Under the pieces are notes generated by a model that ran no database searches, was not told the origin of the DNA, and worked only from the letters and a program-made list of their open reading frames with translations. Of a DNA stretch of 64,000 bases, positions 26,110 through 35,549 are shown piece after piece. Numbering within the stretch: the first letter of the stretch is position 1; each line of letters opens with the position of its first letter. The stretch lies in NCBI GenBank assembly GCA_017620655.1, contig JAGAUT010000034.1, positions 2,334 through 66,333 of the forward strand, given 5' to 3'. The stretch comes from Clostridia bacterium (GTDB lineage: Bacteria; Bacillota; Clostridia; Oscillospirales; CAG-382). Both the position numbers and the translations under genes were made by a program.

Positions 26110-27231
26110 TCAGCGGGTGCTGCCTGCAAAATCCTTAAGCGCTCTGCCACCGTTGATGATACCTGTTGAATAAAGGAAAAGAACATCGGCATCGTCTCCA
26201 AAGCCGGAAATCTGCTTGATAAAATCGGGGACAATATAGCGAAGGTCAACAAATGTTACCTTCTTATATCCCATAGCAAGAAGCGGTGCGATGCTGGAGC
26301 CAAAGGAGTCTCTGAACACAACGAGCTCTTTGCCGTTTGTCGCATTCGGGTTTTCGATTATGACAAGATGCTGTGCACCTGCCGCAAACATATCATAGGG
26401 GTCATTGTTCTTAAACATATCGGTAACATACACGGGGTATTCGTGTCTCTTTCCCATGTCATCAATCACCGTCATGACCATATTATCCGTCACATCATTT
26501 GAAAGGTACTTTATCTCATCGGGGCTGAGGCTGAGTGCCGACTGACCGTAGTACACACCGTAAAAAGGAGAAAGGGTGTTTGTCTTCCACTCTGTATCAA
26601 AAACATGTGCACTCGGATTCATCGACGAAACAAGCTTATCAGCAACGCCGAGGATTTTATCCTGACTCCAATGAGAGTCGGTTTTATAATAGTCGGAAAG
26701 GCTGAGCTTATCTGTTATATCGATATATTCCATGCCCGAAAGTCCGTCATGCACCAAAGTGAAAAGCTTGTCGTAATCCATGGCGGGATATCCGTTTTCC
26801 TTTGAAGCATAATAATGCTTATCGGGGACAATGGAGTAATAAACCTTATCGTCTGAAAAATACTTATCCACAACCTTGTTTACAAGGTCAACGGTATACT
26901 GTACCTGAGCTTCGTCCAGCTTTTCTTCAATCTTTATAACGGTTCCGTCCTGAACATAAATGTCATTGTTATCGTTCTTCTTAAGAACATCCATAAAAGC
27001 AAACGCCTTGAGACTTCTGAAAGAATCACGAAGCGGAAACTGGTCGAGAAAATATCCTTCGATTTCATCGAATATATGTGTATCGTTCTCTTTAAGCGAC
27101 TGCATTGTCGCAAGTGGACGGCGTTCGGATTTGGATATCGTCTTTTCAGGTGACAGGAAAAGCATGAGAGAAAGAGTAAGAATAACAAGGCAGAAAACAA
27201 CTGCATTTGAAATAAGTCTTATTTTTTTCAT
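26110..27231 (-). CDS. DHHW family (AlgJ/AlgX-like) extracellular protein
   Basis: N-terminal TM, SERRPLA, DQFPLRD, YKTDSHW, FRDSFGSS, DLRY. Confidence 0.85.
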   Translation of the reverse strand: MKKIRLISNAVVFCLVILTLSLMLFLSPEKTISKSERRPLATMQSLKENDTHIFDEIEGYFLDQFPLRDSFRSLKAFAFMDVLKKNDNNDIYVQDGTVIKIEEKLDEAQVQYTVDLVNKVVDKYFSDDKVYYSIVPDKHYYASKENGYPAMDYDKLFTLVHDGLSGMEYIDITDKLSLSDYYKTDSHWSQDKILGVADKLVSSMNPSAHVFDTEWKTNTLSPFYGVYYGQSALSLSPDEIKYLSNDVTDNMVMTVIDDMGKRHEYPVYVTDMFKNNDPYDMFAAGAQHLVIIENPNATNGKELVVFRDSFGSSIAPLLAMGYKKVTFVDLRYIVPDFIKQISGFGDDADVLFLYSTGIINGGRALKDFAGSTR

Positions 27232-27243
27232 TTTCTCCCCTCC

Positions 27244-28656
27244 TTAAAACCTGAAATAAAGAAACGGATTGAACGAGCCGTCAACAAGAAGTGCAGTACT
27301 GAATATCAAAAGAAGTGCAACACTTGCAGGCTCTGCGAAGGTAAGAACCACGTTTCCCGCCTTTGTTTCGGAAAACTTCTTCCAAAGCATTTTGGGAAGA
27401 GGTGTAGAGCCGAGAATACAAAGTGCAAGAAGCACAATATAGCTGTCGGCAAAATAAAGAGTTTTTGCTCCGGCAAGGGCATCTGTACCTATACCGAAAA
27501 GTCCGCCGACAAAAATAGGCAACTTATCCATCGACTCAACGCTGAATATAACAAAGCTTATGAGAGTTGTAAACAGCACATACAAATGCTGAATGAGGCT
27601 GCCGCACTTTTTGAGAATATCAGCAAGGAAGAACTTTTCAATTACAAGAAGCACTCCGAAATAGAGTCCCCACAGTATAAAGTTCCATGCCGCACCGTGC
27701 CAGAAGCCTGTTACAAACCATACAACAAGAATGTTTCTCAGCCACTTGAGTGTGGTTGTTCTGCTTCCGCCAAGGGGAAAATAAATATAGTCCCTGAACC
27801 ATGTACCGAGGGTCATGTGCCATCTTCGCCAGAACTCAGTTATGGATTTCGATATAAATGGATAATCAAAGTTTTCGGGGAAATTGAAGCCGAAAATTCT
27901 GCCAAGACCTATTGCCATATCGGAATATGCCGAAAAGTCAAGGTATATCTGAAGGGCAAAGCCAATTGCATAAAGCCAGTAGAGAAGCACGTTGCTCTCA
28001 CCTGTTGCAAGAAGGTCTTTGCAAAGCTCACCCATACCGTTGGCAAGAATTACCTTCTTGCCGAGACCCATGGCGAATCTTCTGATACCGATTGAAAAGC
28101 CCTCGAGAGAATGACGTCTTTCGTCAAGCTCTGCCGCAACATCCGTATATCTTACGATAGGACCTGCTATAAGCTGCGGGAAAAGGCAGACAAAGGTTGC
28201 AAAACTGACAAAGTTTCTCTGTGCCTTTGCCCTTCCTCTGTATACATCGATTGTGTAGGACAGAGTCTGGAAGGTATAAAAGCTGATGCCGATGGGAAGA
28301 TGCACATTGGTAAGAGGAATTGCAATACCGAAAAGTGCATTTATGTTTCCGATGAAGAAATCGGCATACTTGAAGAATCCGAGAAGCCCCAGATTAACAA
28401 CCAGCGAGGCGACAAGAAACCATTTTGTGATTTTTTCTTTGCCTTTTGCTCTGAAATGCTCAATAAGCAGACTCCATATCCAGTCGGTTACGGAGGAAAT
28501 GAGCATTATTGCAATATATGTTCTTTCGCCAAAGTAATAAAAAAACAGGCTTGCAATAAGAAGCACAAAATTTTTCAATTTTTTTGGTGCTGCAAAATAC
28601 AGCACCAAAACTACAGGTAAAAAGGCGTATAAAAATGTTACACTAGAAAATAGCAT
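27244..28656 (-). CDS. MBOAT family O-acyltransferase (AlgI/DltB-like)
   Basis: LPIGISFYTFQ, FPQLIAGPIVRY, EFWRRWHMTL, TGFWHGA. Confidence 0.95.
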   Translation of the reverse strand: MLFSSVTFLYAFLPVVLVLYFAAPKKLKNFVLLIASLFFYYFGERTYIAIMLISSVTDWIWSLLIEHFRAKGKEKITKWFLVASLVVNLGLLGFFKYADFFIGNINALFGIAIPLTNVHLPIGISFYTFQTLSYTIDVYRGRAKAQRNFVSFATFVCLFPQLIAGPIVRYTDVAAELDERRHSLEGFSIGIRRFAMGLGKKVILANGMGELCKDLLATGESNVLLYWLYAIGFALQIYLDFSAYSDMAIGLGRIFGFNFPENFDYPFISKSITEFWRRWHMTLGTWFRDYIYFPLGGSRTTTLKWLRNILVVWFVTGFWHGAAWNFILWGLYFGVLLVIEKFFLADILKKCGSLIQHLYVLFTTLISFVIFSVESMDKLPIFVGGLFGIGTDALAGAKTLYFADSYIVLLALCILGSTPLPKMLWKKFSETKAGNVVLTFAEPASVALLLIFSTALLVDGSFNPFLYFRF

Positions 28657-31690: not shown

Positions 31691-31717
31691 AAGAACATCA
31701 TCAAAAGCCTCTTACAT

Positions 31718-33367
31718 TCAGTGAGAGGCTTTTTTCTTTGAAATACCGACAAGGAGTGCCGTCACAATTCCCACTGCGCACAAAAGCACAAACACATCAC
31801 CAGTTTTAGTATAAAGCGTGCTGCTGTCCGGCAGGAAAACACTTGCACTTATCGCCGTTCTTTCATTGACCTTGGTTTCTTCACGCACTCTGCCGAAGTT
31901 GTCTATAATTCTTGAAATACCTGTATTTGCGCGTCTTATTACAGGCACATTGTTTTCAATTGCACGCATGACGGCATGGTCTGCATGCTGATAAATGGCC
32001 GAGGAGGTTTTATACCATGAGTCATTGGTGGAAATAACGATAAACTCTCCGCCGTTTTTTATCTGGCGTCTTGCGGTTTCGGGAAAAATTGAGTCAAAGC
32101 ACACAAGGCACGCCGCACTGCCCGCCGGCGTCTCGGTGGGAGTAAAGGTGTTTCCTCTTGCAAGGTCGGAGGAAAGCATATTGATTTCGGCAAGGGAAGG
32201 CACAACTTTTTCAAGTATGCTTCTGTACGGCAGAAACTCGCCGAAAGGTACAATGTTATATTTGTTATAGGGTTCTGATATACTGCCACCCGAATCATAT
32301 ACAAAAATCGAGTTATAGCTGTTGCCGTCCTGCTTATTGAAAGCACCTGCAAAAAGAACGGCGTCAAGCTTCTTTGAAATTTGCATCAAAGCTTCTTCGG
32401 AGGGTGAATCATATCCGTCGTAAGGATAAATCGTTGTCGGAAATGCAGTTTCGGGCATGACGGCTATATCTGCATCAAAGTCCTTTGCCATGCGGTATGA
32501 TTTTGCCCAATCCGCAAGATTAAGGTAGACCTCTTTTTCGTCAACCTCACCCGACCACTTTTGACCTGAAGGAATGTTTCCCTGAAGCACCACGGCATTT
32601 AACGATTTACATTTTGTGCAGTCAAATGTATTTACACGCACAACACCGAAAAGGGCATTGAGTGCAAAAACTCCTGCTGCCACAAATGCATACATTCTTC
32701 TTTTTTCTCTCGATTTCCGGGGACTCATCAAAGAAAAAGCCGCAAGTGCATTGACAAGCACCATGACAAATGTAATGAAATACGAGCCAAACAGAGATGC
32801 CGACTGAAGAAGATACACATTTTCTGTTTGTCCCACAAAGAGTCTTGCCCAAGGAAAAGCAAATGTCCCAAGTGACTGCACATACTCTCCGAGAACATAT
32901 CCGAAGCTGACAAGAACAGCCCTCAAATAATTGTTTTTAACCCCTCTTGCCGCAACATATCCGATAAAGACGCAAAACGTCATAAGAAAACCGTGAAGTA
33001 ACGGTATTACCGTTTCTGCAATTACAATAACACCCACACTCTCAAGATTTCCAAGTCCGGCAAAGTCAAGGGGATACAGATTTATAAACCAGCTGTATAC
33101 AAAAAAGTAAAACAACCAGAAGAAACAAAAAAGAGAGCATAATACTCTCTTTAATGTTTTTTCAAAATCGAATACATTCAAAAACAGCGGTACGAGTCCT
33201 ATCCATCCGAAAACGCCAAGTCCCATGTTTTCAACAAACGAGTCAGAAAACAAGTTTTTGGTCACAAAGGGAAGCGAAAACAACAAAGCTGCCGCAAAAA
33301 GAAGAAGAAACTTCTTTACACCTCTGGCATCGGACAAACAGCAAACAAACCTTTTAATTGTATTCAT
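31718..33367 (-). CDS. lnt: Apolipoprotein N-acyltransferase
   Basis: Multi-TM N-terminus, FPWARL, QGNIP, nitrilase triad E (MPETAF), K (YNKYNIVPFGEFLP), C (VCFDSIFP), STNDSWY, RRANTGIS. Confidence 0.9.
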   Translation of the reverse strand: MNTIKRFVCCLSDARGVKKFLLLFAAALLFSLPFVTKNLFSDSFVENMGLGVFGWIGLVPLFLNVFDFEKTLKRVLCSLFCFFWLFYFFVYSWFINLYPLDFAGLGNLESVGVIVIAETVIPLLHGFLMTFCVFIGYVAARGVKNNYLRAVLVSFGYVLGEYVQSLGTFAFPWARLFVGQTENVYLLQSASLFGSYFITFVMVLVNALAAFSLMSPRKSREKRRMYAFVAAGVFALNALFGVVRVNTFDCTKCKSLNAVVLQGNIPSGQKWSGEVDEKEVYLNLADWAKSYRMAKDFDADIAVMPETAFPTTIYPYDGYDSPSEEALMQISKKLDAVLFAGAFNKQDGNSYNSIFVYDSGGSISEPYNKYNIVPFGEFLPYRSILEKVVPSLAEINMLSSDLARGNTFTPTETPAGSAACLVCFDSIFPETARRQIKNGGEFIVISTNDSWYKTSSAIYQHADHAVMRAIENNVPVIRRANTGISRIIDNFGRVREETKVNERTAISASVFLPDSSTLYTKTGDVFVLLCAVGIVTALLVGISKKKASH

Positions 33368-33376
33368 ATGAAGCTT

Positions 33377-33604
33377 TTAGCCCACAAGGCTTTCAAGATA
33401 CTTGATAAAATCTCCGACTGTTACGATTTCGCGGATTTTATCTTCTTCGAGGTCAACATCATACTTCTCTTCGCAGAGAGAAACAAGGTCAGCAAGCTCA
33501 AGTGAATTAAAGCCGAGGTCGTTTATAAATTCGGCATCTTCCTTGATTTCAGACTCATCAATTGACATTTCTTCAACGAGCATTGTCTTGATTTCTTCAA
33601 ACAT
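33377..33604 (-). CDS. acpP: Acyl carrier protein
   Basis: 75 aa acidic; DLGFNSLELADL (Ser attachment site), TVGDFIKY. Confidence 0.88.
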   Translation of the reverse strand: MFEEIKTMLVEEMSIDESEIKEDAEFINDLGFNSLELADLVSLCEEKYDVDLEEDKIREIVTVGDFIKYLESLVG

Positions 33605-33626
33605 AATAAATCTCCTTAGGTTGTTA

Positions 33627-35342
33627 TTATTTTACAAGGAAGCGTTTAATCTTTCTTGTTGTAGTCTTTTCAAATTCGTTCTTTCTGATTTCGATATTTC
33701 TTATCTGCTTGAAGGAAGGAAGCTTTTTATTTATAGCCATGACCTTACCCTTGATATCAGCAGCAATATCGGAAATCTCTGTGCCCTTTTCATATGCATT
33801 GAAATCGGGATATACAACGGCTGTAAGTACGACCTCTTCGCCGCCCTCTTTCTTTCTGCCCACAACAACGCATTCAGCAATTTCATTGACATCCTCAAGG
33901 TATTCTTCAATTTCCTCGGGGAATACGTTCTTGCCGTTTTCAAGTACGATTACGCTCTTGCATCTGCCTGTGATGTAGATGTAGCCGTCCTTATCCATAT
34001 GTCCGACGTCGCCTGTTCTGAACCAGCCGTCTTCGGTGAAAACTTCGGTATTTGCTTCTTCATTCTTATAGTAACCGAGCATTACGTTTTCGCCTCTGAC
34101 CTGAATTTCTCCCGTGAGGTTTCCGTTTTCGTCAACCTCCTCGGCGTCGATTCTTGCCTCACAGCAATCACACGCAGGACCTACGGAGCCTTTTTTTCTT
34201 GCATAGTAAGGGTTAACTGCGATAAGGGGTGAGCATTCCGTGATACCGTATCCCTCGCAGAGGGTAATACCGAGATTGTCAAAGAACTTCATAAGTTCAG
34301 GGTTCATCGCCGCACCGCCGCAAATGATCTTCTGAAGATTTCCGCCGAAAGCAGCAAGGATTTCAGAGAAGAGCTTTCTTCTCATATCAAGACCTACAGT
34401 TCTCATGGCACCCGATGCAAGCATACCAAGCTTTAACTGGTTTTCCTTGCCTTTCTTCTTTACGCTGTCAACAATTTTCTTGTGGAAGGTTGTTGCAAAA
34501 AGAGGAACGATAACAATACCCGTAGGCTTGAATATTCCAAGGTTCTTAACCACATTCTTGAGATTATCATTTATACAGCATGTAGCACCCAGCGACTGTA
34601 TGGCAACATTGATGGTAAGCTCGTATGTGTGATGAATGGGAAGCACCGAAAGCATTACATCGTGTTCATAAAAGTCCGTTGCATGAACGGCACTCTTTGC
34701 ACAAGAAATCTGGTTTCTTTCGGAAAGCATTACGCACTTGCTTGTGCCTGTTGTGCCGGAGGTAAAGAGCATGATGCTCATGTCCCCTCTTGCTCCTCTT
34801 CTCATGATATCGGCGTCGGAATCTCTTTCGAGTCCCTCGCCCTTCTTCACAAAGTCGCTGAACTTTATAAGCTTTTCATCTTCAACAGTCCATTCGGTTC
34901 CGTCATCTACCCTGATAACAAGCTCAAGGTTATCGAAAACGCCTGCCGCCTTCAATTCCTCATACTTCTGGGAGTATTTAGGACTCATGATAATGCCGTG
35001 TGCTTCTGCAATATCAAGAAAGCCGCGGATCTGCTCGTATGCAAGCTCCTTGTCAAAGGGAATTGCCACAGCACCTGCACTGATAATTGCAAAATACGAC
35101 TGGAGCCATTCGGGGCAGGTTTCGCCGATGAGAGCAATTCTTTTACCTTCAAATCCGCCGCTCTTGAGAGCGCAGATCATATTCTCTATATTTTCGCCGT
35201 TCTGATAATAACTGACTTCAACAATTTCTTTATTCGCGCCGAGATACTTGTAAGCAACCTTGTCGGGGCGCTTGAGGGCATTATATCTCGCAATGGCACG
35301 AAGACTTCTTGCGTGGGGTACGTCTTTTTCAATTTTTTTCAT
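33627..35342 (-). CDS. AMP-dependent long-chain fatty acid ligase (acyl-CoA/acyl-ACP synthetase)
   Basis: FTSGTTGTSK, LPIHHTYE, CGGAA, EGYGITECSP, WFRTGD, GKNVFPEEIE. Confidence 0.92.
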   Translation of the reverse strand: MKKIEKDVPHARSLRAIARYNALKRPDKVAYKYLGANKEIVEVSYYQNGENIENMICALKSGGFEGKRIALIGETCPEWLQSYFAIISAGAVAIPFDKELAYEQIRGFLDIAEAHGIIMSPKYSQKYEELKAAGVFDNLELVIRVDDGTEWTVEDEKLIKFSDFVKKGEGLERDSDADIMRRGARGDMSIMLFTSGTTGTSKCVMLSERNQISCAKSAVHATDFYEHDVMLSVLPIHHTYELTINVAIQSLGATCCINDNLKNVVKNLGIFKPTGIVIVPLFATTFHKKIVDSVKKKGKENQLKLGMLASGAMRTVGLDMRRKLFSEILAAFGGNLQKIICGGAAMNPELMKFFDNLGITLCEGYGITECSPLIAVNPYYARKKGSVGPACDCCEARIDAEEVDENGNLTGEIQVRGENVMLGYYKNEEANTEVFTEDGWFRTGDVGHMDKDGYIYITGRCKSVIVLENGKNVFPEEIEEYLEDVNEIAECVVVGRKKEGGEEVVLTAVVYPDFNAYEKGTEISDIAADIKGKVMAINKKLPSFKQIRNIEIRKNEFEKTTTRKIKRFLVK

Positions 35343-35549
35343 TGTAAAAATTCACTCCTAATTCTGTGATACGCAATGTATCATTATAATTATACTTACT
35401 TTTCTTATATTGTCAATAAACAAACTATTAAATATTCCTCTTTGTTTCTTGACAGAGCCTCAAACTGAGTATATAATATATTCAGACAATTGTGCCTTTG
35501 CGGCACCGTTTACGTTAATACCTATTTTTCATCGAAAGGATACATAATA

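Follow-up and report, generated by a model that had tools for sequence, protein, structure and literature searches.

A putative operon joining a fatty-acid ligase and an acyl carrier protein to an apolipoprotein N-acyltransferase in apparently monoderm Clostridia

The stretch of DNA analyzed here (64,000 nucleotides of contig JAGAUT010000034.1 from an uncultured gut Clostridia bacterium; hereafter, the window) carries on the minus strand of interval 31718-35342 three co-directional open reading frames (ORFs), which an ORF check of the window fitted exactly to these coordinates. They encode an AMP-dependent fatty-acid ligase of the ANL family, a small acyl carrier protein (ACP), as well as a homolog of apolipoprotein N-acyltransferase (Lnt). 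The original prediction, made from the sequence of the window, had described three genes running in one direction with gaps of 22 bp (ligase-ACP) and 9 bp (ACP-Lnt), an intact Glu-Lys-Cys triad in Lnt, and no adjacent fab genes; the coordinates, the Pfam and NCBIfam matches, and the alignment with the E. coli Lnt structure (5vrg) bear this out, and inspection of the flanking genes found no fab genes adjoining the operon. The parts of the operon are all from known families. What appears to be new is the presence of a true Lnt in monoderm Clostridia, against review statements on Firmicutes, and its placement in an operon with a fatty-acid ligase-ACP module in a host without type II fatty acid synthesis (FASII). 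We lean slightly towards a scheme in which an acyl-ACP synthetase and its dedicated ACP feed phospholipid synthesis and Lnt triacylates lipoproteins from phospholipid.

The 549-aa Lnt combines an LNT_N domain (PF20154, residues 47-208) with a CN_hydrolase domain (PF00795, residues 283-510). It scores 246.8 bits against the NCBIfam model TIGR00546 (“lnt”), for which the equivalog cut-off is 132.9, and a six-frame search of the genome returns it at 243.7 bits. When it is aligned to the E. coli protein (5vrg; residues 82-543, E=2e-28, ~25% identity), the triad residues E306, K369, and C423 fall on E. coli E267, K335, and C387, and W271 and E377 fall on the essential W237 and E343. These five residues are invariant across 15 homologs, and the residues of the phospholipid ping-pong mechanism of the E. 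coli enzyme are all kept, with conservative replacements at two positions (Y388 and E389 in the E. coli protein, F424 and D425 here). By every sequence-level test of membership, the protein is confirmed as a true Lnt.

Hydropathy analysis of this protein indicates seven or eight hydrophobic segments. A loop with 6 Lys or Arg residues (positions 216-224) is followed by a helix (225-243), a 281-aa domain (244-524), another helix (525-543), and a C-terminal KKK. From the hydropathy profile and the positive-inside rule, the 281-aa catalytic domain is predicted to face outside, as in E. coli, which makes cytoplasmic acyl-ACP an unlikely direct donor for Lnt. The same prediction bears on a possible direct relay, in which acyl-ACP would be the immediate donor and the chain would be passed through or along the membrane domain in the manner of DltC and DltB. 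The succession of ligase, carrier, and membrane acyltransferase does mirror DltA-DltC-DltB, and the ACP-Lnt junctions are tight (1-9 bp) in all operon-bearing loci. However, a catalytic domain predicted to lie on the other side of the membrane from the ACP, the retention of all ping-pong residues, the stand-alone state of most Lnts in Clostridia of the same clade, and the lack of any fusion protein or independent re-creation of the linkage among the loci seen make such a relay highly improbable.

Some Lnt homologs deviate from this plan. In one lineage of Clostridia, they reach 720-724 aa (L132:4225-6387 in genome G210 and L007:5848-8022), owing to a ~180-aa C-terminal GNAT domain (PF00583, 25.3 bits; cut-off, 20.7) that follows the last transmembrane helix and is predicted to be cytoplasmic. 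We know of no enzyme identified as the maker of the N-acetylated lipoproteins found in some Firmicutes, which renders this Lnt-GNAT fusion intriguing. In another genome, the Lnt gene (G186:C20:24049-25059) contains two in-frame TAG stops and may be a pseudogene or reflect an assembly error.

The window belongs to a 2.2-Mb metagenome-assembled genome (MAG), 93.6% complete, with MAGs of uncultured Oscillospiraceae and Eubacteriales as its nearest named relatives. Searches of this genome gave no match to Omp85/BamA or LpxC; the positive controls were matches to 7 diderm genomes for the former and 4 for the latter. The host thus looks monoderm by these markers, in agreement with the original prediction, and a search for outer-membrane machinery came out negative. 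The upstream enzymes of the lipoprotein pathway, Lgt (242.7 bits) and LspA (134.3 bits), are both encoded in the genome, and a lipobox pattern matches 73 ORFs, of which ~55-70 are convincing lipoprotein precursors.

This lipoprotein pathway is relevant to the question of what Lnt acts upon. As an alternative to lipoproteins, the homolog might acylate another acceptor, such as a wall polymer or a lipid with an amine group: an Lnt is not obviously required in a monoderm without Lol, the protein evolves fast (32-69% identity across the operon-bearing loci, where the ligase retains 51-89%), and E. coli Y388 and E389 are replaced. We regard this as a very doubtful alternative in view of a whole-protein score far over the lnt equivalog cut-off, the full set of essential residues, and the co-occurrence in the genome of Lgt, LspA, and many lipobox proteins. 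Moreover, the Lnt enzymes of Streptomyces, which is likewise monoderm, are functional and have lipoproteins as substrates.

Fatty acid synthesis, by contrast with lipoprotein maturation, seems to be missing. No match to ketoacyl-ACP synthase (PF00109) was found in the window genome, and tblastn searches with E. coli proteins detected PlsX, PlsY, PlsC, and AcpP and did not find FabH, FabD, or FabF. A genome of the same genus (G103, 98% complete) has no ketoacyl synthase either, so that an assembly gap is an unlikely explanation. A check for fab genes and a second acpP, proposed along with the original prediction, accordingly found FabH, FabD, and FabF absent and the second acpP present. The host likely scavenges fatty acids for its membrane and does without type II synthesis, as far as its gene content indicates. 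Because there is no FASII and apparently no Fak, some fatty-acid-activating enzyme would be needed to supply PlsX, PlsY, and PlsC, and the ligase-ACP module is, on sequence grounds, the best candidate for this role.

The 571-aa ligase contains an AMP-binding domain (PF00501, 3e-57) followed by AMP-binding_C and has the sequence motifs TSGTTG, GYGITE, and TGD, as well as the C-terminal lysine motif RKIKR. Its best NCBIfam matches are long-chain fatty-acid ligases, all under the equivalog cut-offs, which places it at the subfamily level. Two paralogs, 34-38% identical, are encoded in the same genome; the one on contig C32 has no flanking ACP gene, and the one on contig C40 is cut by the contig end. 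The product of the second gene, only 75 aa long, matches the Pfam PP-binding family (7.5e-11, 42.6 bits; cut-off, 20.8). Its attachment serine lies within the sequence DLGFNSLE, which does not match the canonical DSLD motif, and it stays slightly under the cut-offs of the housekeeping AcpP models TIGR00517 and PRK00982 (the scores were 58.3 versus 70.45 and 63.7 versus 71). A canonical AcpP (DLGADSLD), matched by E. coli AcpP, is encoded elsewhere (C23:9172-9375), alone on its contig, with no fab genes alongside.

The acpP gene usually lies between plsX and rnc in Firmicutes. In the window genome, plsX is followed by rnc after a gap of 55 bp (G000:C54:7142-8866); the intervening acpP is absent, and the canonical acpP is found at an unrelated site on contig C23.

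The association of the ligase with the ACP extends well beyond this operon. A ligase ortholog is directly followed by an ACP gene in 20 of the 21 genomes inspected (families f1, f6, and f16), with ligase identity going down to 41%. The pair is present in two genomes without Lnt (G170 and G007) and also in genomes that have FabF (G084, G122, G186, and G217); because of the latter, the ACP of the operon is best seen as a dedicated carrier and not as a replacement for AcpP. Across 19 loci, no conserved third gene was found beside the pair, the neighbors being unrelated (sigma factors, two-component systems, SpoVA, and TrmL-like proteins), and no specialized acyltransferase, polyketide synthase, or nonribosomal peptide synthetase is conserved next to it. 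Judged from these sequences, the pair of ligase and ACP existed as a module of its own before Lnt joined it. In two genomes, the ligase ortholog is interrupted by a single in-frame TAA (G206:C63:18579-20216 and G016:C3:58019-59635); these genes could be pseudogenes or products of assembly errors.

Such an independent module might have nothing to do with lipoproteins. It could make a specialized acyl product, such as a membrane lipid or a lipidated metabolite, or the ligase could simply be an acyl-CoA ligase, with Lnt as an unrelated passenger. Dedicated ligase-ACP pairs elsewhere do feed specialized acyltransferases, as AasR/AcpR feeds serine palmitoyltransferase (PMC9386255), and the occurrence of the pair in the four FabF-bearing genomes indicates that it is more than a substitute for FASII; the best curated and structural matches of the ligase, moreover, are CoA ligases. 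We consider this explanation rather unlikely, since none of the specialized enzymes sought is conserved beside the pair at the 19 loci and since a cell without FASII, and apparently without Fak, needs fatty-acid activation for PlsX, PlsY, and PlsC.

In the scheme that we favor, the ligase would adenylate free, environment-derived fatty acids and load them onto the adjacent dedicated ACP, working as an acyl-ACP synthetase of the AasS or AasR/AcpR kind. The acyl-ACP would enter PlsX, PlsY, and PlsC, so that phospholipids would be made of scavenged chains. The membrane-embedded Lnt, with its nitrilase-like domain outside, would then take an acyl chain from phospholipid and N-acylate the diacylglyceryl-cysteine of the lipoproteins made by Lgt and LspA, which would produce triacylated lipoproteins in single-membrane Clostridia. 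Known Lnt takes the sn-1 chain of phospholipid and releases lysophospholipid (PMC11416262, PMC7387801). The position of Lnt behind the ligase and ACP would be a derived arrangement, in which co-expression might match acyl supply to the demand of Lnt for phospholipid chains, with lysophospholipid being left behind. That phospholipid is the donor and that lipoproteins are the acceptor are what we infer from the sequence of Lnt and the company it keeps in the genome. Given the predicted topology and the separability of ligase-ACP and Lnt, any passage of scavenged fatty acid to lipoprotein N termini would most likely be indirect, via phospholipid. Of the scavenging route ending on lipoproteins that had originally been proposed, fatty-acid scavenging is thus supported by the missing FabH, FabD, and FabF, whereas a dedicated route from ACP to N terminus is disfavored by the outward orientation predicted for the Lnt domain and the cytoplasmic location of the ACP.

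The linkage of all three genes recurs in at least 7 other genomes or contigs, which dispels the concern that it might be unique to this genome. Four metagenomic contigs (L083-L086), one Oscillospiraceae MAG (L003), and genome G217 (L093) carry the order ligase-ACP-Lnt beside nusB-tsaD-xseAB; the same order, judged by coordinates, is found in the same-genus genome G103. Across the linked loci, identity to the window copy is 69, 69, 51, 45, 41, and 32% for Lnt, ranges from 89 down to 51% for the ligase, and from 92 down to 59% for the ACP. Because the same order recurs while Lnt identity drops to 32%, the linkage is neither a chance event nor a peculiarity of one assembly.

At the same time, the fusion is confined to a narrow group. 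In quick trees of Lnt and of the ligase, six operon-type Lnts form one clade (Shimodaira-Hasegawa-like approximate likelihood ratio test, 94), with the G217 Lnt unresolved beside it, and seven operon-type ligases form a clade (support 99) together with those of G170, which has the ligase-ACP pair and no Lnt, and G195, which has its Lnt elsewhere in the genome. This pattern is consistent with the operon fusion having arisen once, in one sub-clade. The possibility that the G195 ligase and Lnt are adjacent across a contig break was ruled out: no ACP gene follows the ligase, and a gene on the opposite strand intervenes. In the quick Lnt tree, the Lnts of L127, L131, and L128 (families f5 and f8) branch apart from the main group of Clostridia Lnts, in genomes without a ligase ortholog, which hints at a separate acquisition.

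The distribution of the two genes was surveyed in 251 species representatives from 138 genera of one Clostridia order, using counts that ignore kinship. Lnt is found in 39 of these genomes (21 genera) and the ligase ortholog likewise in 39; both are present in 27 genomes, Lnt only in 12, the ligase only in 12, and neither in 200 (odds ratio, 37.5). The co-occurrence across Clostridia that had been suggested as a check is, within this order, borne out for presence in the genome but not for adjacency, as the ligase adjoins Lnt in just three of the 39 Lnt-bearing representatives (G000, which is the window genome, G103, and G217). The idea of ligase-ACP-Lnt as an obligate partnership is not supported: the pair occurs without an adjoining Lnt in most relatives, a substantial share of Lnt-bearing genomes have no ligase, and the fusion appears to have a single origin.

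Unexpectedly, 129 of the 251 genomes lack ketoacyl-ACP synthase, a good number of these being 97-100% complete; by this measure, fatty-acid auxotrophy seems widespread in the order. Loss of FASII was considered as an explanation of the Lnt and ligase distribution and set aside, as the enrichment is weak: FabF is lacking in 27/39 Lnt-/ligase-bearing genomes compared to 102/212 others (p=0.02, kinship ignored).

The co-occurrence of Lnt and ligase invites another explanation, a split version of the Aas repair cycle, in which the ligase and ACP would re-acylate the lysophospholipid left by Lnt, with an unlinked acyltransferase completing the reaction. E. coli Lnt constitutively yields lysophosphatidylethanolamine, and Aas forms acyl-ACP in situ for its re-acylation (PMC11416262). 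A cycle of this kind would fit both the strong statistical association across the order and the close packing of the three genes in the window. It is less readily reconciled with the search results: tblastn with E. coli Aas gave matches to the ligase portion alone (residues 233-701), LplT produced nothing at E<=1e-3, and the genome thus has no homolog of either the Aas acyltransferase domain or LplT. Beside the ligase-ACP pairs of other genomes, there is no conserved gene, the pair persists in the two genomes without Lnt, and 12 Lnt-bearing genomes have no ligase. A repair cycle is accordingly a possible but unlikely explanation. More generally, it is very unlikely that the ligase and ACP constitute a dedicated acyl-delivery arm for Lnt, whether as a Dlt-like relay or as a self-contained cycle of scavenging, N-acylation, and repair. 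If such an arm did exist, fatty acids from the host or its diet would be placed selectively on the lipoprotein N termini of abundant gut commensals, tuning recognition by TLR2/1 versus TLR2/6.

Several observations weigh against the preferred scheme of supply through phospholipid. The closest curated and solved relatives of the ligase are coenzyme A (CoA) ligases, and querying the PDB with its sequence gave generic ANL enzymes only, which are uninformative on the acceptor; the choice of ACP over CoA as the putative acceptor follows from gene adjacency and precedent alone. The precedent comes from AasR/AcpR, where a “putative acyl-CoA synthetase” encoded beside a small ACP proved specific for the neighboring ACP (PMC9386255). 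The overlap of Lnt and ligase is concentrated in families f1, f6, and f16 and might go back to just a handful of evolutionary events; together with the apparent single origin of the fusion, this clustering could perhaps mean inherited gene order without functional coupling. Each component is separable from the other: of the 39 genomes that carry Lnt, 12 lack the ligase, and of the 39 with the ligase, 12 lack Lnt. As the genome is an incomplete MAG, a fab cluster might have been overlooked. Finally, the apparent absence of Fak, which speaks for the scheme, is weak evidence: searches with a regular expression for the DegV N terminus, with E. coli DhaL, and with a DegV sequence found no FakA-like or DegV-like ORF but had no positive control.

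The features of the locus are collected in Table 1.

Table 1. Genes and candidate signals of the ligase-ACP-Lnt locus, in window coordinates
Feature	Coordinates	Strand	Remarks
AMP-dependent (ANL-family) fatty-acid ligase, proposed acyl-ACP synthetase	33627..35342	-	571 aa
Dedicated acyl carrier protein (ACP)	33377..33604	-	75 aa
Apolipoprotein N-acyltransferase (Lnt) homolog	31718..33367	-	549 aa
Promoter-like site upstream of ligase, TTGACA-16-TATAAT	35389..35416	-	12/12 consensus positions; consensus match only
Divergent candidate promoter for nusB	35449-35477	+	12/12 consensus match only
13-bp-stem hairpin with T-runs, likely two-way terminator	31703..31733	.	Terminator scan; between convergent Lnt and GntR-type genes

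One consensus promoter, the tight gaps, and the terminal hairpin, which overlaps the final codons of Lnt, suggest that the ligase, ACP, and Lnt genes are co-transcribed as an operon. The ligase ATG at 35342 is preceded by a GGAG Shine-Dalgarno sequence and the ACP gene by a strong one, AAGGAGA. A clear Shine-Dalgarno sequence is absent at the ACP-Lnt junction, where Lnt starts 9 bp past the ACP stop, an arrangement consistent with translational coupling. The operon is flanked on one side by nusB, tsaD, and xseA and on the other by genes for a GntR/LacI-type regulator, a MIF-like protein, and a NUDIX protein. The 147-bp gap between the ligase and nusB holds two candidate sigma-70 promoters, each a perfect match to the consensus (12/12), placed back to back (35389-35477).

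On the same strand, 3 kb from the operon, lies a pair of genes encoding an MBOAT protein (470 aa) and a DHHW-family protein (373 aa; 26110-28656 for the pair), preceded by a 286-aa ORF without a Pfam match. The pair is kept in L083 and L084, and G035 (L125), whose Lnt stands alone, also has an MBOAT gene at a distance of 3 kb from it. The pair probably represents an AlgI/AlgJ-like O-acyltransferase of a surface polymer. A Dlt-like link between this pair and the ligase-ACP module was rejected, as the pair forms a separate transcription unit beyond two opposite-strand genes and is absent from the 19 other ligase-ACP loci.

According to a review, no protein homologous in sequence to Lnt is found in Gram-positive Firmicutes (PMC8689077), which agrees with the original view that Lnt would be unexpected in this phylum; reviews name Lit or LnsAB as the enzymes by which lipoproteins are N-acylated there in its place; S. 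aureus is the textbook case, which led to the discovery of LnsAB (PMC7387801). Among Firmicutes, Lnt has been reported, as far as our literature search found, only for the diderm Halanaerobiales (PMC5007114), and the search yielded no account of an Lnt from any monoderm member of the Clostridia or of a ligase-ACP-Lnt operon. The bona fide Lnt detected across 21 of 138 genera (39 of the 251 species representatives) in a monoderm, largely gut-dwelling order would, if active, provide a third route to lipoprotein N-acylation in Firmicutes, of the classical type, beside Lit and LnsAB. Commensals with such an enzyme would display lipoproteins triacylated with fatty acids scavenged from the host or the diet, and the TLR2 heterodimer that senses them would change.

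Among known systems, the Lnts of E. coli, other diderms, and actinobacteria (TIGR00546; PDB 5N6H, 5VRG, and 5XHQ) share with the protein described here the two-domain architecture, the triad, the equivalents of W237 and E343, and the predicted topology, and here too Lgt and LspA are present for the upstream part of the pathway. In contrast to these, the present Lnt has a monoderm host, shows ~25% identity to the E. coli enzyme, and shares a putative operon with a ligase and an ACP, which the characterized Lnts do not. With AasR/AcpR of Caulobacter and other Rhodobacteria (PMC9386255) and the soluble AasS of Vibrio harveyi, the system has in common an ANL ligase that carries an acyl-CoA synthetase annotation, a small dedicated ACP distinct from AcpP, and the proposed channeling of free fatty acids into lipid synthesis. 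It differs from AasR/AcpR in having no linked serine palmitoyltransferase or other specialized acyltransferase, in its host without FASII, and in the putative status of the ACP as the acceptor.

In E. coli Aas/LplT, an acyl-ACP-forming ligase is tied functionally to the lysophospholipid produced by Lnt, whereas here the ligase is tied to Lnt genetically; there is no fused or adjacent PlsC-type domain and no LplT, and a separate dedicated ACP takes the place of the housekeeping ACP. DltA-DltC-DltB has the same gene logic, with an adenylating ligase, a carrier protein, and a polytopic membrane acyltransferase; the membrane enzyme here is, however, Lnt and not an MBOAT protein, and the ligase resembles fatty-acid ligases and not DltA. 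Finally, Lit and LnsAB of Firmicutes belong to protein families unrelated to Lnt but share with it what is presumed to be the end result, N-acylation of lipoprotein cysteines in a monoderm, and the consequences of this for TLR2 recognition.

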